64,000 nucleotides of DNA from Escherichia coli (GTDB lineage: Bacteria > Pseudomonadota > Gammaproteobacteria > Enterobacterales > Enterobacteriaceae): assembly GCF_050920415.1 (NCBI RefSeq), contig NZ_CP169309.1; one strand, given 5' to 3'. The position numbers and the translations under genes are program-made. Below, piece by piece: positions 19,169 to 56,178 of the stretch. The number at the start of each line of letters is the position of its first letter. Position 1 is the stretch's first letter. The notes under the pieces are model-generated. The model was given only the letters and a program-made list of their open reading frames with translations, had not been told where the DNA came from and searched no databases.

Positions 19169-19456
19169 TCAGCCGTAACGAAACTCCACACCAAAGGTGC
19201 CGCGCGGGTATTCCCACTGTTCCAGCGCCGACCCCAGCCCCAGAATTCGGCAGGTGCCACACTCCAGACATCCGGCGTAATCGAAACGCACGCTGCCGTC
19301 ATCCTGCTTCTTATACAGACCTGCGGGGCACGCTTTCACCAGCAGCTCCAGCGCCTGTTTATCCGCATCGGCCTTTACAACAATGTGCGGATGCTCTTCA
19401 TCGACATTGAATTTATTGACGCCCAGTTTGACGTCCACATTGACGGGAGAAGTCAT
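19169..19456 (-). CDS. fixX: Ferredoxin-like protein FixX
   Basis: 95-aa ORF with Cys-rich ferredoxin motif (CPAGLY...CLECGTC); 4-bp overlap with fixC. Confidence 0.93.
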   Translation of the reverse strand: MTSPVNVDVKLGVNKFNVDEEHPHIVVKADADKQALELLVKACPAGLYKKQDDGSVRFDYAGCLECGTCRILGLGSALEQWEYPRGTFGVEFRYG

Positions 19457-20739
19457 AAAACGGTCACTCCTTTCATGCCATCCTTGATCAGATTGATGAA
19501 GCCCACTTTCTTGCCGTGGCGGAGGATTTTCTTGCGCATCAGTTCCGGCACGCTGCCGTCAATGGTGAACAGGTCACGCGCCACGCCCACCGCCAGTTCC
19601 GGGTAGCCGCTAAACATGCGTGGGTTATCAAGGAACGTCGGTAGTTTCTGGTACATGCGCATATCGCGCAGTGGGCCACTCTCCAGATGCTGACGATATT
19701 CCGTCAGTTTTTGCTTACTGAAATCGTCGCTTTTCATCGCTGAAAGCACGGTTTTTGCAGCAGCTTCCCCGGCGGCAATCGCCAGATCCATACCGCGAAT
19801 AGTAAAACCGAGGTTCATACACATTCCGGCGGCATCACCGGCAATCAACACGCCGTCACCGACCAGCTCCGGCAGCATGTTGATGCCTGCTTCCGGCACT
19901 ACGTGAGCGGAATATTCCACCAGCTTGCCACCCGCAATCAGCGGTGCAACTGCCGGATGTTGTTTGAAATCTTCCAGCATTTGCGGCACCGATTTTTTTG
20001 CGTCATGCAGATGATGCAGACCGCAAACCAGCCCCAGCGACAGGGTATTTTCATTGGTATAAAGGAAGCCGCCGCCCATCAGGCCATCAGTAGGTGATCC
20101 CGCAAATAAGCAAGCCGCCCCCTGATTACCCTGCAACTGAAAACGGTCTTCGATAACCGACTTCGGTAACTCGATCAGTTCCTTCACGCCAACCGCCACA
20201 TCCGTCGGTTTGACGCGTTTTGCCATCCCCAGCTTTTCGGCAAGGATCGAATTCACTCCGTCAGCAAGGATCACCGTTTTCGCTTCAATCACATCGCCAT
20301 CGGCTTCTACGCCGACAACTTTGCCATCGCGCTGTACGAGGTTATCGACACGAATCCCGGTAATTAACTGCGCGCCCGCCTCTTCGGCCTGCTCCATCAA
20401 CCAGGCATCAAATTTACTGCGCAAAACGGAGTAAGAACGCTGGGATGGCGAGGTTTCGTCGCCATTGCAGTAGTCCATAGTCATCGCTGACTTTTCCGTC
20501 ATAAACGCGAGTTTTTCATGGGTGATCAGGCGTTCTACGGGGGCGGATTCGGCGAAACCAGGAATAATGTGTTCCAGACTGTGGGCATAGAGACGCCCGC
20601 CGGTGACGTTCTTGGCACCTGCGGAATTGCCACGCTCGATAACTAACACTTGCGCACCTTCGCAGGCGAGCACCAGTGCGGCAACCGAACCGGCAAGCCC
20701 TGCACCTACGATGATGGCGTCAAAGATATCTTCGGACAT
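19453..20739 (-). CDS. fixC: FAD-dependent oxidoreductase FixC
   Basis: 428-aa ORF with N-terminal FAD fold (DAIIVGAGLAGSVAAL). Confidence 0.93.
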   Translation of the reverse strand: MSEDIFDAIIVGAGLAGSVAALVLACEGAQVLVIERGNSAGAKNVTGGRLYAHSLEHIIPGFAESAPVERLITHEKLAFMTEKSAMTMDYCNGDETSPSQRSYSVLRSKFDAWLMEQAEEAGAQLITGIRVDNLVQRDGKVVGVEADGDVIEAKTVILADGVNSILAEKLGMAKRVKPTDVAVGVKELIELPKSVIEDRFQLQGNQGAACLFAGSPTDGLMGGGFLYTNENTLSLGLVCGLHHLHDAKKSVPQMLEDFKQHPAVAPLIAGGKLVEYSAHVVPEAGINMLPELVGDGVLIAGDAAGMCMNLGFTIRGMDLAIAAGEAAAKTVLSAMKSDDFSKQKLTEYRQHLESGPLRDMRMYQKLPTFLDNPRMFSGYPELAVGVARDLFTIDGSVPELMRKKILRHGKKVGFINLIKDGMKGVTVL

Positions 20740-20789
20740 AAGAGCTCCCTGTCAGCGGCAGGGCCGAAATGCAGCCCTGCCAGAGTGGA

Positions 20790-21731
20790 TCAACGCGCTA
20801 AAGCGGCGGTCAGCGCCGGAAGGATCTTCACGGCGTCACCAACAATGCCGTAATCCGCGAACTGGAAGATCGGCGCATTTTTATCTTTGTTGATGGCGAA
20901 AATAGTTTGCGACGCGTTAGCGCCAACCATGTGCTGGATCTGCCCGGAGATCCCCACCGCCAGGTACAATTCAGGTTTCAGCATCAGGTTGGAGATACCG
21001 ACATAGCGTTCGTGCTCCATCCATTTTTCGTTTTCCGCCACCGGACGAGAACAGGCCAGCTCCGCACCTATCGCCTTGCAAAGCTGTTCTGCCAGCGCAA
21101 TGTTCTCTTTGCTGCCAATGCCGCGACCGACGCTGACCACCAGACGGGCTTTATCCAGATCGACGCTGTTGCTCTGGCGCGCCTGCGTTGCCGTGCGGGT
21201 AATCGCCACCGCCGGAGCCTGCCACGCCACGGTGTGTGTTTCGCCAGTACGTGACGCGTCTGGCTGAGCCGCATCGAACGTGCCGCTGCTGATGGTCAGT
21301 ACCGCATACGGCGTGGCAATGCGTTCTTCGCCAATCGCCAGACCGCCGTAAACCATGTGTTTCACTGTCGCTTTACCGTCCTGCACGCTAACGGCGCTGG
21401 CATCGTTCGAAACCGCCGCTTTAAGGCGATAACCCAGTTTTGCCGCCAGTAATTTGCCGCGACGAGTATTCGGCAACAGCACCAGACCGTCTGCGCCGTG
21501 CTGGCGAATAGTGTCAGCCATGACACCGGCGTAATCTTCGATCATCCGATCGTCCGGTTTGCCGCTTAATTTCCAGACATGATTAGCGCCAAACTGGATT
21601 GCCAGTGCGCCGTCGGCATCATTGAGGACAAAGGTGTTGATTTGATTAGCTAAAGCCTGCGCACCGTTCATCAGTTCCGGCAGACGAGAAGGGGTATCGC
21701 TGAATACCCAGACTTGAGAAAACGTGTTCAT
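20790..21731 (-). CDS. fixB: Electron transfer flavoprotein alpha-subunit homologue FixB
   Basis: 313-aa ORF; ETF-alpha-like; fixABCX order. Confidence 0.93.
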
Positions 21732-21745
21732 AGCATCCCCTGTAA

Positions 21746-22516
21746 TTAAATGACTTTGCGAAGATTTTCAGCAAATGCGGCGATCTGTTCTTCGCCGTCG
21801 CCTTCAATCACAATGCGCTGACGCTCGCGCTGTTTCGGTGCGGCAACCTGTTGTTCAGACCAGGCTTCCACGGCGTTAAAGCCAATGTCCGCCGCCGACC
21901 ATACCTGGACTGGCTTTTTCGCCGCGCCGAGAATGGCTTTCATTGAAGGAATTTGTGGGGAGTTGATATCAGTGGAAACAGCAACAACCGCAGGCAGCGG
22001 AATGCTTAACGTTTCTGTTTCATCTTCCAGTTCGCGTTCAACGGTGAGGGTATCTGCCGTCAGGGAAATAATTTTGCTGACACCGTTAACGACTGGAATA
22101 TCGAGGATTTCGCCCACCAGCAAACCAACCTGTTGGGCATAAAGGTCGGAAGAACCATCGCCGCAGAGGATCAGATCAAACCCTGCTTTCTGGGCGGCTG
22201 CAGCCAGTGCTGTCGCCGTTTGTTGCGGCAGTGCCTGCTCGAACTGGTCATCAATTACCACAATCAGTTCATCCGGACCGCGCGATAGCACATCTTTACG
22301 CCCTTTGGCATTGGTCAGGGCTTTACCGCCCACACTTAAGGCCGTCACCTGCGCTTCTGCCGCCTGCTGTTTTAACTGACAAGCCGCTTCAATAGCGTTG
22401 AGATCGTATTGGCTTATTTTGGCATCGGCTTTACTGAAGTCTAACGAACCATCAGCATTATTGACCGCAATATCCTGTTCATCAGGCACGCACTTATAGC
22501 AAGTAATAATCTTCAT
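21746..22516 (-). CDS. fixA: Electron transfer flavoprotein beta-subunit homologue FixA
   Basis: ORF track 21746..22579; start trimmed to [15 protein letters not shown] (256 aa). Confidence 0.92.
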
Positions 22517-22985: not shown

Positions 22986-24503
<1,518 letters not shown>

Positions 24504-24533
24504 TTAACCCACAAAATATCAAGAGGTTGAAAG

Positions 24534-25676
24534 ATGGATTTTAATTTAAATGATGAGCAGGAACTGTTTGTCGCCGGTATCCGCGAACTGATGGCCAGCG
24601 AAAACTGGGAGGCCTATTTTGCCGAGTGCGACCGTGACAACGTCTACCCGGAACGTTTTGTCAAAGCACTGGCAGATATGGGTATCGACAGCCTGCTTAT
24701 CCCGGAAGAGCACGGCGGGCTGGACGCAGGTTTTGTCACCCTCGCCGCCGTGTGGATGGAATTGGGTCGTTTGGGGGCACCAACCTACGTGCTGTACCAG
24801 TTGCCGGGTGGATTCAACACCTTCCTGCGCGAAGGCACACAAGAGCAGATCGACAAGATTATGGCGTTTCGTGGTACTGGTAAGCAGATGTGGAACTCAG
24901 CGATTACCGAACCAGGGGCTGGCTCTGACGTGGGTAGCCTGAAAACGACTTATACCCGTAGAAATGGTAAGATTTATCTTAATGGTAGTAAGTGTTTTAT
25001 TACCAGCAGCGCCTACACCCCGTACATCGTGGTGATGGCGCGTGACGGGGCTTCTCCGGACAAACCTGTCTACACCGAATGGTTTGTTGATATGAGCAAA
25101 CCGGGCATCAAAGTGACCAAACTTGAGAAGCTCGGTCTGCGTATGGATAGCTGCTGTGAAATCACCTTTGACGATGTGGAACTGGACGAGAAAGACATGT
25201 TCGGTCGGGAAGGTAACGGCTTTAACCGCGTCAAAGAAGAGTTCGACCATGAACGTTTCCTGGTAGCCCTCACCAACTACGGTACGGCGATGTGCGCCTT
25301 TGAAGATGCGGCGCGCTACGCCAACCAGCGCGTGCAGTTTGGCGAGGCTATTGGTCGTTTCCAGTTGATTCAGGAAAAATTCGCCCACATGGCGATCAAA
25401 TTAAACTCCATGAAAAACATGCTGTATGAAGCAGCGTGGAAAGCAGACAACGGCACCATCACCTCTGGCGATGCAGCGATGTGCAAATACTTCTGCGCCA
25501 ATGCGGCATTTGAAGTGGTGGATAGCGCAATGCAGGTGCTGGGCGGTGTTGGGATTGCGGGCAACCACCGCATAAGCCGCTTCTGGCGTGATCTGCGTGT
25601 AGACCGCGTCTCCGGGGGATCTGACGAAATGCAGATCCTGACGCTGGGTCGTGCGGTGCTGAAACAATACCGCTAA
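24534..25676 (+). CDS. caiA: Crotonobetainyl-CoA reductase CaiA (acyl-CoA dehydrogenase family)
   Basis: 380-aa ORF; acyl-CoA dehydrogenase-like; synteny. Confidence 0.95.
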
Positions 25677-25687
25677 GTCCGTGCGCT

Positions 25688-25771
25688 GCCTGATGCGACG
25701 CTACCGCGTCTTATCAGGCCTACGGGAGTACGAATGTAGGCCTGATAAGGCGTTTACGTCGCATCCGGCAG
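25688..25771. repeat. REP/BIME-type palindromic element (caiA-caiB intergenic)
   Basis: Seen in sequence: GCCTGATGCGACGCT...CGTCTTATCAGGCCTAC and GTAGGCCTGATAAGGCG...GTCGCATCCGGCAG, the canonical E. coli REP palindromic units. Confidence 0.75.
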
Positions 25772-25786
25772 TCATGCGCTACATAA

Positions 25787-27022
<1,236 letters not shown>

Positions 27023-27094
27023 ACGCGTGGCGTCAGTCAGCTTGCCTGACTAGCGCCCGCCCAATAACAAACGACTAAAATGGATAGAGGTGCA

Positions 27095-28648
27095 ATGGAT
27101 ATCATTGGCGGACAACATCTACGTCAAATGTGGGACGATCTGGCGGACATTTACGGTCATAAAACGGCGCTGATTTGTGAATCCAGCGGCGGAGTCGTTA
27201 ACCGGTACAGTTATCTTGAGTTAAATCAGGAGATTAACCGCACGGCAAACCTGTTTCATACGCTGGGGATTCGCAAAGGCGACAAGGTTGCTCTACATCT
27301 CGACAACTGCCCGGAATTTATCTTTTGCTGGTTCGGGTTGGCAAAAATTGGCGCGATTATGGTGCCGATTAACGCCCGCCTGTTGCGCGAAGAAAGCACG
27401 TGGATCCTGCAAAATAGCCAGGCGTGCCTGCTGGTGACCAGTGCGCAGTTCTATCCCATGTATCAACAGATTCAGCAGGAAGATGCCACTCAGTTGCGGC
27501 ACATTTGCCTGACAGATGTGGCACTTCCCGCTGATGATGGCGTGAGTTCGTTTACTCAACTGAAAAATCAACAACCTGCCACCTTGTGCTATGCACCGCC
27601 GCTATCGACTGACGATACGGCGGAAATTCTCTTTACCTCCGGTACCACTTCCCGGCCGAAAGGGGTGGTGATTACCCATTACAACCTGCGCTTCGCCGGA
27701 TATTACTCCGCCTGGCAGTGCGCACTACGTGACGATGACGTCTACCTGACGGTAATGCCTGCATTTCATATCGATTGCCAGTGTACTGCGGCGATGGCGG
27801 CGTTTTCTGCCGGAGCCACCTTTGTGCTGGTCGAGAAATACAGCGCCCGCGCCTTCTGGGGACAGGTACAAAAGTACCGCGCCACCGTTACCGAATGCAT
27901 TCCGATGATGATCCGTACCTTGATGGTGCAGCCGCCTTCTGTGAACGATCGGCAACACCATCTGCGGGAAGTGATGTTTTATCTCAACCTGTCGGAGCAG
28001 GAAAAGGACGCATTTTGTGAACGCTTTGGCGTCCGCTTGCTGACGTCTTATGGGATGACGGAAACCATTGTTGGCATTATCGGCGATCGCCCCGGCGATA
28101 AACGACGCTGGCCGTCAATTGGCCGTGCAGGATTTTGCTACGAAGCGGAGATCCGCGACGATCACAATCGTCCGCTCCCGGCTGGTGAAATCGGTGAAAT
28201 CTGCATTAAAGGCGTACCAGGGAAAACCATCTTCAAAGAATATTTTCTTAACCCGCAAGCCACTGCCAGAGTCCTGGAAGCCGATGGCTGGCTGCACACT
28301 GGCGATACCGGATACCGCGACGAAGAGGGCTTTTTTTATTTCGTCGATCGCCGCTGCAATATGATTAAACGCGGTGGCGAGAATGTCTCCTGCGTGGAGC
28401 TGGAAAATATTATCGCCGCACATCCGAAAATTCAGGACATCGTAGTTGTTGGTATTAAAGATTCGATTCGTGATGAAGCTATCAAAGCATTTGTGGTGCT
28501 GAATGAAGGTGAAATATTGAGCGAAGAGGAATTTTTCCGCTTCTGCGAACAAAATATGGCGAAATTTAAAGTGCCCTCTTATCTGGAGATCAGAAAAGAT
28601 CTGCCACGTAATTGCTCGGGGAAAATAATTAGAAAGAATCTGAAATAA
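27095..28648 (+). CDS. caiC: Carnitine/crotonobetaine-CoA ligase CaiC
   Basis: ORF track 27080..28648; start taken at [11 protein letters not shown] (517 aa); AMP-binding motif [11 protein letters not shown]. Confidence 0.92.
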
Positions 28649-28756
28649 ATGAAACGGCAGGGAACTACCCTGCCCGCTAATAATAACGCTCTAAAACAAT
28701 ATGCATTTTTTGCAGGGATGTTGTCGTCCCTGAAAAAGCAAAAATGGAGAAAAGGA

Positions 28757-29542
28757 ATGAGTGAATCATTACATCTGACCCGCAATGGATCAATTCTGGA
28801 AATTACCCTTGATCGCCCAAAAGCGAATGCTATTGATGCAAAAACCAGCTTTGAAATGGGCGAAGTCTTTCTAAATTTCCGTGACGATCCGCAATTACGC
28901 GTCGCCATTATTACCGGTGCCGGAGAGAAATTCTTTTCCGCGGGCTGGGATTTAAAAGCGGCAGCAGAAGGCGAAGCACCTGATGCTGACTTTGGCCCGG
29001 GTGGTTTTGCGGGATTAACCGAAATTTTCAATCTCGACAAACCGGTTATCGCAGCTGTGAACGGCTACGCCTTTGGCGGCGGCTTTGAACTGGCACTGGC
29101 GGCAGATTTTATTGTCTGTGCCGATAACGCCAGCTTCGCCCTGCCGGAAGCCAAACTGGGCATCGTTCCTGACAGCGGCGGTGTGCTGCGTCTGCCGAAG
29201 ATCCTGCCGCCTGCTATCGTCAATGAAATGGTGATGACCGGCAGAAGAATGAGCGCAGAAGAGGCGCTGCGTTGGGGGGTAGTCAACCGCGTGGTTAGCC
29301 AGGCGGAACTGATGGATAACGCCCGCGAACTGGCGCAACAACTGGTTGACAGCGCCCCGCTGGCGATTGCGGCGCTGAAAGAGATCTACCGCACCACCAG
29401 CGAAATGCCGGTAGAAGAAGCGTATCGCTATATTCGCAGCGGCGTGTTGAAACACTATCCATCGGTTCTGCATTCGGAAGATGCCATTGAAGGGCCGCTG
29501 GCGTTTGCCGAAAAGCGCGATCCGGTGTGGAAAGGACGTTAA
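28757..29542 (+). CDS. caiD: Carnitinyl-CoA dehydratase CaiD (enoyl-CoA hydratase family)
   Basis: ORF track 28649..29542; start taken at [12 protein letters not shown] (261 aa); crotonase fold. Confidence 0.9.
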
Positions 29543-29547
29543 CAACC

Positions 29548-30137
29548 GTGAGTTATTACGCCTTTGAGGGGTTAATTCCAGTGGTTCACCCGACGGCGTT
29601 TGTCCATCCCAGTGCGGTCTTGATTGGCGATGTGATTGTGGGAGCCGGTGTCTACATCGGCCCACTCGCCTCACTGCGTGGTGACTACGGGCGGTTGACG
29701 TGCAAGCGGGAGCCAATATTCAGGATGGTTGCATTATGCATGGCTACTGCGACACTGACACCATCGTTGGGGAAAACGGCCATATCGGGCACGGAGCAAT
29801 CCTGCATGGTTGTGTGATTGGTCGCGATGCATTGGTCGGGATGAACAGCGTGATTATGGATGGCGCGGTCATTGGCGAAGAGAGCATTGTTGCCGCCATG
29901 AGCTTTGTCAAAGCAGGCTTTAGCGGCGAGAAACGTCAGTTGTTGATGGGTACGCCTGCCCGCGCTGTACGCAGTGTTAGTGACGACGAGTTACACTGGA
30001 AGCAGTTGAATACCAAAGAGTATCAGGATCTTGTCGGCCGCTGCCATGTAGCGTTACATGAAACGCAGCCGTTGAGACAAATGGAGGAAAATCGCCCCCG
30101 TTTGCAGGGGACGACGGATGTGACGCCGAAACGGTGA
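29548..30137 (+). pseudogene. caiE: caiE split by an apparent 1-bp deletion (frameshift near 29698)
   Basis: Two ORFs in different frames (29527..29817 and 29700..30137) together cover CaiE; the first diverges after GDYGRL and the second resumes at (V)QAGANIQDG. Span is 590 nt, one short of the 591 expected for 196 aa plus stop. Confidence 0.7.
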
Positions 30138-30140
30138 TCT

Positions 30141-30224
30141 TGCCGGATGCGGCGCAAACGCCTTATCCGACCTGGCTGGAGAGCAACCGTAGGCCGGATA
30201 AGATGCCAGCATCGCATCCGGCAA
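30141..30224. repeat. REP/BIME-type palindromic element (caiE-caiF intergenic)
   Basis: Seen in sequence: TGCCGGATGCGGCGCAAACGCCTTATCCGACC...GTAGGCCGGATAAGATGCCAGCATCGCATCCGGCA. Confidence 0.75.
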
Positions 30225-30253
30225 CCAGACCGCACGGTATCAACGAAATTAAA

Positions 30254-30649
30254 TTAACGACGCATACTCTTCGACAACATCATTTGCCACTTCTGCTCGC
30301 GGTTAAGTTCCGTGAGTGGAACGGCAGGAATACGCGGTGTCTTTCTTACGCCGACTAATTTTTCCCGACTGTTATTGCGCAGGCGCGCGTAAATTTGCTC
30401 ATCGATATCGACCACTTTAACCAGTCGCTGACACTGGCATCCCCGCCCTTCCAGCTTATTAGGGATCATCTTAACTTCGCAGCTTATTTCTGTGACTTCC
30501 GACAGAATATAAGTGAGGGTATTAACCGCCTTGCTGTGTTCAATATCGAAATGAATAGAGATCTCTCTTGCTATCACCCACCGATTTTCAGCCATCATCC
30601 ATTCGGCGATTAACAAGTAGAGTGGTTTTTCAACATATCCTTCACACAT
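30254..30649 (-). CDS. caiF: Transcriptional activator CaiF of the cai/fix operons
   Basis: ORF track 30254..30754; start trimmed to MCEGYVEKPLYLLIAEWMMAENRW (131 aa). Confidence 0.9.
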   Translation of the reverse strand: MCEGYVEKPLYLLIAEWMMAENRWVIAREISIHFDIEHSKAVNTLTYILSEVTEISCEVKMIPNKLEGRGCQCQRLVKVVDIDEQIYARLRNNSREKLVGVRKTPRIPAVPLTELNREQKWQMMLSKSMRR

Positions 30650-53903: not shown

Positions 53904-55397
53904 TTAGCCCCAGGTCACTGCTTCTGGTTTATCACCTCTGGCTTTCATTAGAGAATCATTATCAATATCACTTTTATATTTTAAAAACTTACCATACATC
54001 TGTTTTTCAATATCTGGTTTTTTACCGATCAGATTAAGTGTTTCAAAACGATCAGATTTAAGATTATAGAGATATTTCGGTTTATTATTGCGATCGATAA
54101 TCATCTTCCAGTCACCATCACAGATCGCCCATTCATCGGTTGGATCATCCTGGAATGGCATATCAATCCCGAAAATTAATGGCTTTTCGCGTTTCAATGC
54201 TTTTTGCTCAAGAACAGGAACCAACGATTCGCCATCAAAAGTGCGGTCCGTCGGTAATTTGAAGTTCATCATTTTCGCCAGCGTAGGCATCCAGTCCAGA
54301 CCATAAACGGGAGTATCTGAAACCATTCCCTTTGGAAGATGCTTTCCGTATTTAATAATCGCCGGAACACGGATGCCGCCTTCCCAAAGATTATCCTTGC
54401 GACCACGTAATCCATCAGTTTCCCCTGCCAAATTCAGTTCATAAACTTTACGTGCTTCACGGGTTACTGGGCCGTTATCACTGGTAAAAATAACGATGGT
54501 GTTATCTTCTTCACCCATCGCTTTGATTTTATCCAGTACTTTTCCAACCTGAGCATCCAGATAACTGATGTTGGCATAATATTCCCCCACACCACGCCAG
54601 GGTTTATCCGCCCAGTCGCCATAAAATAAATCAGGATGCTGCTTCTGATACGCGCTCATATATTGTGAGTACATGTCGAGGTATTTTTTGGGCGAAGCCA
54701 GGGGGCTATGCACTTCGGTAAAAGCGACATAAAGGAAGAAAGGCTTACTATCCTTTTTGTTATCCAACCAGTTAACGACTTCCGAACTGACATACTCACC
54801 ACTCATTTTATCGGCACGAGGTGTGGGTTGCCCGTTACGCAACCAACCCGTCGGATACACCATGCCAAAACGGGGACGCTCCTTCGCATTATCCAGAGTA
54901 GCGTCGGTAACAAAACCCGCCGTATTAACCAGTGAGTAATCAAAGCCCATATCTTTTGCCTGAGGCTGATCGGTACGATCGCCGCCTGCATTCAGATGCA
55001 GCTTACCCATCATTGCCGTGTCGTACCCTTGCGCTTTGAGTAGATTAGCAATCGTGAGTTCATTACGCCCTAATGCCACATCTTTTCCCGTTGGTATCCA
55101 TGAACGTATGCCGGTACGAAATGGCATCCGCCCCGTTAATAACCCCGCTCGCGAAGGAGAACTTAAGGGAGCTGGGGCATAGTAGTCAGTAAATTTGACG
55201 CCCTCCTGGGCAAGCCTGTCAATATTGGGGGTTTTAACGATCTGATGACCATATGTTGCTAAATCGCCATAACCTAAATCATCCGCCATAATAATGACTA
55301 AATTAGGTTGTTTAACCTCTGCGGCTAAGGCAGGACTAAAAGCATTCCCTGTGCAAACTGCAAGGCCGATCAAACTGGCCATTAACGTTTTCTGCAT
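53904..55397 (-). CDS. Secreted Ser-type sulfatase (arylsulfatase family)
   Basis: 497-aa ORF with signal peptide (MQKTLMASLIGLAVCTGNAFSPALA); sulfatase signature APAPLSSPSRAGLLTGR with Ser at the formylglycine position; N-terminal metal-binding region (IMADDLGYGDL). Confidence 0.85.
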   Translation of the reverse strand: MQKTLMASLIGLAVCTGNAFSPALAAEVKQPNLVIIMADDLGYGDLATYGHQIVKTPNIDRLAQEGVKFTDYYAPAPLSSPSRAGLLTGRMPFRTGIRSWIPTGKDVALGRNELTIANLLKAQGYDTAMMGKLHLNAGGDRTDQPQAKDMGFDYSLVNTAGFVTDATLDNAKERPRFGMVYPTGWLRNGQPTPRADKMSGEYVSSEVVNWLDNKKDSKPFFLYVAFTEVHSPLASPKKYLDMYSQYMSAYQKQHPDLFYGDWADKPWRGVGEYYANISYLDAQVGKVLDKIKAMGEEDNTIVIFTSDNGPVTREARKVYELNLAGETDGLRGRKDNLWEGGIRVPAIIKYGKHLPKGMVSDTPVYGLDWMPTLAKMMNFKLPTDRTFDGESLVPVLEQKALKREKPLIFGIDMPFQDDPTDEWAICDGDWKMIIDRNNKPKYLYNLKSDRFETLNLIGKKPDIEKQMYGKFLKYKSDIDNDSLMKARGDKPEAVTWG

Positions 55398-55417
55398 AAT
55401 TATTCCCTGATAAAAAA

Positions 55418-56178
55418 TTAGAAATCATAACCAAGCATATAAATCATTTGATCGCCAAAGCCATCGTAGCCCAGCTTATTATCGAAATAACGCCACGTCA
55501 CACTGGCTTTCCAGCGAGGATAGAACTTCCAGGCAATAGTTAAACCGCCATTTAACCCGTTCCGACCAAATTGCTGCTCCGTGTAAGCATCGTTCCTATC
55601 CAGTTCTATTTCATTCCAGTTAGATAAAACAAATTTTTCGTCAAATAACATAAATGGCAATACTGCTGTCCAGCCAACAACATAACCATTCCAACCATTC
55701 GTTTGACCATATTTAGCTGATACGTAGTCACCAGATTGATTATGTAATCCAATATACGGTTTACCCCCCCCCATGAACCATTCCAGCCGAGGTAGCCCAA
55801 ACCATAAAACATATCAAGATCGTCACCCCATGAGTTATCCCATTGACCATAGATCTTGCCAAAGAAAGTCATATCAGAGTCAAAGAGTCTGACATGCGTC
55901 ATTGCTGAAACTGTATGATTTCTCCCTGCTACAGCATGATTGAGTACATTACTTTCATAAAATGAGTAAAATTCTGCTTCTTTAAAATTTACCCCAAAAT
56001 CCGCAGTCACTTTCCATACTTCACCACGGTGAGTGTTTACAAATCCACTATTCCAGTCTGCATAACCCGCATTTATTGAACCAAAGGTTCCTTTATATTC
56101 TAATGAAGAATATGCAGGAAAATGATAGATAGCTGTTATCAGGGTACACGCAATAAGAAGTCGTCTTTTGGCAGACAT
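55418..56178 (-). pseudogene. Tsx-like outer-membrane beta-barrel channel, frameshifted in a G9 homopolymer
   Basis: ORFs 55606..56178 and 55418..55774 in different frames; signal-peptide-like N-terminus (MSAKRRLLIACTLITAIYHFPAYS), aromatic-rich beta-strand composition, C-terminal ...YMLGYDF. The frames meet at the homopolymer at 55764..55772. Lies 20 bp upstream of the sulfatase. Confidence 0.75.
55764..55772. repeat. Homopolymeric tract C9 (G9 on the coding strand) inside the channel gene
   Basis: Seen in sequence: TTA-CCCCCCCCC-ATGAACC. Coding strand reads TCA TGG GGG GGG GTA AAC (out of frame); 10 G would give TCA TGG GGG GGG GGT AAA CCG = S W G G G K P. Confidence 0.9.

Follow-up and report, generated by a model that had tools for sequence, protein, structure and literature searches.

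PaaY, the closest characterised relative of the carnitine operon protein CaiE, with which it shares strong sequence similarity (PaaY model TIGR02287, E = 5e-60 for the C-terminal piece described below), is a trimeric, metal-containing CoA-thioesterase with a left-handed β-helix fold that disposes of a dead-end CoA ester with inhibitory effect (PMC9493321). The similarity extends to γ-carbonic-anhydrase-like hexapeptide-repeat proteins in general (TIGR02287; PDB 8gpm, 3vnp, 3tio and 1thj). A comparison of CaiE with the PDB returned 68 sequence matches, the best of which was 8gpm (E = 8e-61 over residues 2-183), and other trimeric β-helix structures align with CaiE from residues 1-11 onward. Whereas PaaY is characterised, the activity of CaiE itself is unconfirmed; the sole effect reported is that overproduction of CaiE stimulates CaiB/CaiD activity (PMC2131755), and our literature search found no paper with a proven CaiE activity. 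By analogy, the likeness to PaaY suggests that CaiE may have a comparable housekeeping role in the handling of CoA esters.

The window, by which we mean the whole 64-kb stretch of DNA analysed here, carries a disrupted copy of caiE. In its setting, this copy resembles that of intact Escherichia CaiE (NCBIfam equivalog NF010150; the 196-aa protein P0017, named ‘MULTISPECIES: carnitine operon protein CaiE’): in both, caiE holds the final place in caiTABCDE, and caiF lies directly downstream on the opposite strand in convergent orientation. The divergent fixABCX operon is also present in the window, completing the genomic context expected of CaiE (Table 1). Unlike the intact gene, however, the window copy breaks its frame after residue 50, and neither of the resulting pieces reaches the family cut-off. 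From the evidence set out below, we consider it very probable that the lesion is a real, inherited and inactivating one-base deletion.

The interrupted caiE reading frame

The original prediction held that caiE is split by a 1-bp deletion within 29690-29705, that the frame switches after GDYGRL and resumes at QAGANIQDG, and that CaiE cannot be made from this copy as one polypeptide. Base-level alignment of the window with four other genomes, including N96, Z0117EC0005 and ATCC 8739, revealed a single gap column at the junction; the intact genomes read TTGATCGTGCAA where the window reads TTGACGTGCAA. The missing base is a T between 29698 (A) and 29699 (C), in codon 51, and its loss is the sole indel relative to N96 within 12.8 kb. 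When the T was re-inserted, the window encoded an uninterrupted 196-aa protein identical to P0017. The alignment and the restored frame bear out the predicted deletion and support the view that no single CaiE polypeptide can be made, and the sequence together with the list of open reading frames confirms the frame switch. The peptide proposed for this site and the predicted sequence TTGATnGTGCAA, with n = C, were also right, the restored protein containing the expected 17-residue stretch.

A frame and stop check of the window showed that the length of caiE leaves a remainder of 2 on division by 3. Around the junction, positions 29680-29711 read GGT GAC TAC GGG CGG TTG ACG TGC AAG CGG GAG. The N-terminal ORF begins at the native GTG at 29548, reads ...SLRGDYGRL and then TCKREP..., and ends at a stop at 29817. 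The C-terminal ORF at 29700-30137 lies in a different frame and reads (M)QAGANIQDG...; an alternative call for it starts at ATG 29736 and gives a protein of 133 aa.

When the two pieces were scored against NF010150, profile positions 1-50 fell on the N-terminal piece (101 bits) and positions 52-196 on the C-terminal piece (295 bits). Summed over both pieces, the model is therefore matched along its whole length, which identifies the gene as a member of this family; each piece alone misses the cut-off of 305 bits, and there is no single uninterrupted ORF. The frame break after codon 50 and the two sub-threshold scores thus make this copy a pseudogene of the CaiE family and not a functional member. 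Pfam Hexapep matches on both pieces further place it in the hexapeptide-repeat, γ-carbonic-anhydrase-like superfamily.

Table 1 Features of the cai/fix region in the window
Feature	Position	Strand	Description
fixABCX	19169..22516	-	Divergent companion operon, intact
caiT, caiA, caiB, caiC, caiD	22989..29542	+	Upstream genes of the same operon, all intact (PGAP annotation of a near-identical record; frame and stop check)
caiE pseudogene	29548..30137	+	590 nt; intact orthologues have 591 nt and encode 196 aa
N-terminal ORF	29548..29817	+	89 aa: 50 native CaiE residues, then 39 out-of-frame residues
Deletion junction	29698..29699	+	Loss of a single T within GATC, changing TTGATCGTG to TTGACGTG; not in a homopolymer
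C-terminal ORF	29700..30137	+	145 aa from a GTG that is the former Val52 codon; CaiE residues 52-196
caiF	30254..30649	-	Transcriptional activator of cai/fix; intact, convergent with caiE (3' ends facing)

Carriers and descent of the deletion

Among 5,426 complete E. coli genomes searched with the caiE region by megablast, one record had the same length at 100% identity, NZ_CP169399.1 from strain MFDS1022581; N96, which came next in similarity, has the extra base in caiE. An exact 70-bp query across the junction was found in one of 5,406 complete E. coli genomes, the other 5,405 being without it. In NZ_CP169399.1, the gene (locus ACE00D_RS21370) is labelled by PGAP as ‘carnitine operon protein CaiE, frameshifted’ and as a pseudogene, the whole cai region is identical to that of the window, and the T is missing in the same way. 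Identity over 12.8 kb suggested that the window and NZ_CP169399.1 might be one and the same; this was ruled out at full length, where the two differ by 6 SNPs and one homopolymer (poly-C) length difference over 64 kb. They are separate isolates or assemblies that share the caiE deletion. Two of the differences, at 20449 and 20664, lie in fixC, where the only amino-acid change is the window-private FixC R26C; at 20664 the window has a private A against G in each of the four further carriers compared, so that its source strain is none of these four.

The identical junction is present in five distinct assemblies, namely the window, NZ_CP169399.1, AP025751.1, PTRQ01000005.1 and the Logan assembly of SRR25147556. 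Over 20 kb, the last three are each 1-7 SNPs away from the window, and each contains GGGCGGTTGACGTGCAAGCGGGAG. As the Logan assembly was built straight from the SRA run by an independent pipeline, it is the nearest proxy for read support. Moreover, exact-sequence look-up showed that the truncated products have themselves been deposited. The 89-aa N-terminal piece (P0001) is recorded as a hypothetical protein of Escherichia sp. 10290 and HH154_1D; of the C-terminal pieces (P0002 and P0003), the 145-aa form is recorded for E. coli M863 and the 133-aa form for STEC_7v and 1.2741. The 133-aa form is also present in Logan assemblies; in all, it occurred on 59 contigs and in 72 index blocks. The lesion is thus reproduced in five assemblies and in truncated proteins from at least five named strains.

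To place the carriers, we built a neighbour-joining tree of an 11-kb caiT-carB core from the five carriers and nine intact relatives. All five carriers group tightly together, separated from one another by 0-2 SNPs. The nine intact relatives branch outside this group, and their distances from the window range over 59-503 SNPs, which is the pattern of a lineage-specific pseudogene with an intact ancestral state. Strains 10290 and 7v have been described as STEC/ETEC hybrids of Escherichia cryptic clade I (C-I), a clade regarded as an emerging pathogen source (PMC10100065); that paper makes no mention of carnitine, cai or pseudogenes. The locus tags of the deposited caiE fragments (EsCd1...) fit a placement in clade I. 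Judged by these sequences, the deletion is apparently specific to one recent clade I sublineage. The T would have been lost once from the GATC at codon 51 in this sublineage, and its descendants, including the source of the window, would have inherited the deletion.

Systematic nanopore errors are known to arise at methylated motifs, and the missing base sits inside a GATC. The original prediction had left sequencing error as the alternative. In that case the genome would truly read GATC and the base would have been dropped during sequencing or assembly; we considered systematic base-calling errors at Dam-methylated GATC in long reads as one possible cause. The presence of the junction in just one of 5,406 complete E. 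coli genomes would fit such an error, and the poly-C tract at which the two closest assemblies differ indicates that data from this lineage do contain errors or variation of the homopolymer type. However, the same junction in five SNP-distinct assemblies from different submitters, one of them the independent Logan build, and the truncated products deposited for M863, STEC_7v and 1.2741 speak against it, and thousands of other assemblies retain GATC at this site. The carriers are also monophyletic, which inheritance predicts and a site-specific error does not. In addition, AP025747.1 is intact in caiE and AP025751.1 is deleted; the two have adjacent accessions and locus tags of one style, which suggests that both come from one project, and their differing alleles argue against a systematic error at the junction. 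A Dam-site long-read artefact was rejected on these grounds (independent assemblies, carrier monophyly and the AP025747.1 and AP025751.1 alleles), and we regard sequencing or assembly error in any form as almost certainly not the explanation. With the frameshift in the window taken as biological, its assembly needs no correction.

An inherited deletion could also have spread because it was beneficial. Loss of caiE might have been selected in the clade I sublineage that contains the STEC/ETEC hybrids, for instance through the handling of CoA esters in the gut. The allele has been sampled in several countries and in dozens of isolates, the clade has been described as an emerging pathogen source (PMC10100065), and cai genes are repeatedly broken in Escherichia (caiC in N96 and ATCC 8739, caiB in SRR25147556). 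Clonal expansion with hitch-hiking nevertheless accounts equally well for the spread, the repeated breaks strike different cai genes and resemble relaxed selection, and the function of CaiE is unconfirmed (PMC2131755). We therefore consider adaptive loss quite improbable; the loss of caiE is ordinary lineage-specific gene decay.

The frameshift is already known in the sense that PGAP flags the pseudogene in RefSeq and that split ORFs have been deposited for several named strains. We found no mention of the lesion in the searchable literature; it is visible in public annotation. Overall, the finding matters little. The 24-nt junction GGGCGGTTGACGTGCAAGCGGGAG could offer a simple means of recognising one recent clade I sublineage, to which the STEC/ETEC hybrids 10290 and 7v belong, and the carrier isolates, as natural caiE knockouts whose carnitine operon is intact in all other genes, are useful for testing the role of CaiE.

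Expected products and consequences of the frameshift

Translation from the native GTG would yield 50 correct residues followed by 39 wrong ones before the stop at 29817, and the remaining 145 codons would be left without an evident ribosome-binding site. By comparison with solved homologues, the first ~50 residues would belong to the left-handed β-helix core of a trimeric γ-carbonic-anhydrase/PaaY-like protein. Because the N-terminal 50 residues are placed in this core, neither fragment is expected to fold or to assemble into trimers, and we infer that the caiE allele is null. As caiE is the final gene of caiTABCDE, its disruption is not polar on any other gene, and the proteins assigned to steps from carnitine to γ-butyrobetaine (CaiT, A, B, C and D) remain encoded. 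The unconfirmed function of CaiE and its place at the end of the operon together point to a small cost, so that the phenotype would be mild and would amount at most to a lowered efficiency of the pathway.

We also weighed whether caiE might still function, through a programmed -1 frameshift or transcriptional slippage, through the split fragments acting together, or through the 145-aa fragment alone. Several features of the locus are compatible with this: both frames are open over 133 nt (29685-29817), the GTG of the C-terminal ORF lies exactly at the junction, no other cai or fix gene is broken, so that the pathway as a whole has not been given up, and dozens of carriers have exactly the same 133 C-terminal residues. 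The scans for recoding or reinitiation signals were, however, negative. No slippery heptamer of the form X_XXY_YYZ was found in the 0 frame within 29685-29817, where the sole XXXYYYZ sequence is GGGAAAA at 29770, in the wrong register; the same interval has no homopolymer run of at least 5 bases; and no Shine-Dalgarno-like motif was found upstream of GTG 29700 or of ATG 29736. An Rfam search at the junction gave no match, and a promoter and terminator scan gave nothing over shuffled expectation there. The site thus lacks what would identify it as one of programmed -1 frameshifting or slippage, and the rescue of caiE by recoding or reinitiation is unsupported. The identity of the C-terminal residues is explained by the very recent origin of the lineage (0-2 SNPs per 11 kb), and the 50 N-terminal residues match positions 1-50 of both the CaiE and the PaaY models, a region that forms part of the β-helix core in solved homologues. 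A functional caiE in these strains is accordingly very improbable, and we retain the reading of an inactivating deletion.

The C-terminal fragment does keep 145 of the 196 residues, including histidines predicted by homology to bind metal, and has a usable GTG start; it might in principle have some residual activity. The carriers, as natural caiE-null strains with otherwise intact cai and fix genes, could show one of two outcomes: either conversion of carnitine to γ-butyrobetaine is normal because CaiE is dispensable, or the 145-aa fragment is active. We put this forward as a speculative and rather unlikely expectation. If the fragment were active, the first two β-helix turns would not be needed, and either outcome, if true, would help to define the function of CaiE.

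Other gene decay and variation in the window

Elsewhere in Escherichia, too, single cai genes are disrupted by point changes where the rest of the operon is complete; like the caiE lesion in this respect, these disruptions differ from it in affecting different genes and in being independent events. In the compared cai region (window 25805-28648), caiC has an internal stop in N96 and a frameshift in ATCC 8739. In the Logan assembly of SRR25147556, a G-to-T change at the counterpart of window position 26462 splits caiB, and GCA_019184625 has no caiC gene call. This recurrent decay in relatives is consistent with weak selection on the carnitine operon. Between caiE and caiF, the intergenic interval 30140-30235 is filled by REP-like palindromic repeats (GCCGGATGCGGCG... 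/ ...CGCATCCGGC).

The six PGAP pseudogenes in the window raised the question of a general load of assembly errors. This was rejected: the CcdB and fimbrial pseudogenes are common to N96 and are thus ancestral, and the other indels relative to N96 are mostly homopolymer differences inside already-degraded fimbrial or ompK-like genes. The first of these pseudogenes belongs to a chromosomal ccdA/ccdB toxin-antitoxin pair at 13978-14528, between apaH and folA, in which the ccdA antitoxin is intact and the ccdB toxin has an internal stop; the same is seen in N96, and ccdB is intact in Z0117EC0005. The fimbrial genes form a degraded chaperone-usher operon at 46316-50111, with a frameshifted chaperone and an usher that is frameshifted, carries a stop and is truncated. 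This degraded operon is common to N96 and 2017-02-2CC, and several A7/G7 homopolymer length differences (47166, 49397 and 49443) separate the window from N96.

In the ompK-like gene (~55183-55943, minus strand), the poly-C/G tract at 55764-55772 has a length of 9 in the window and 8 in MFDS1022581, whose copy PGAP calls frameshifted; a tract of 10 (or 7) would keep the gene in frame. In N96 the sequence at this site is different and intact (GEWGFFKPY). The tract could be phase-variable, or the length difference could be homopolymer sequencing noise. Finally, a transposase fragment and the type III secretion effector gene espY1 lie between rluA and djlA at 4925-5881; both are missing from the otherwise collinear N96.
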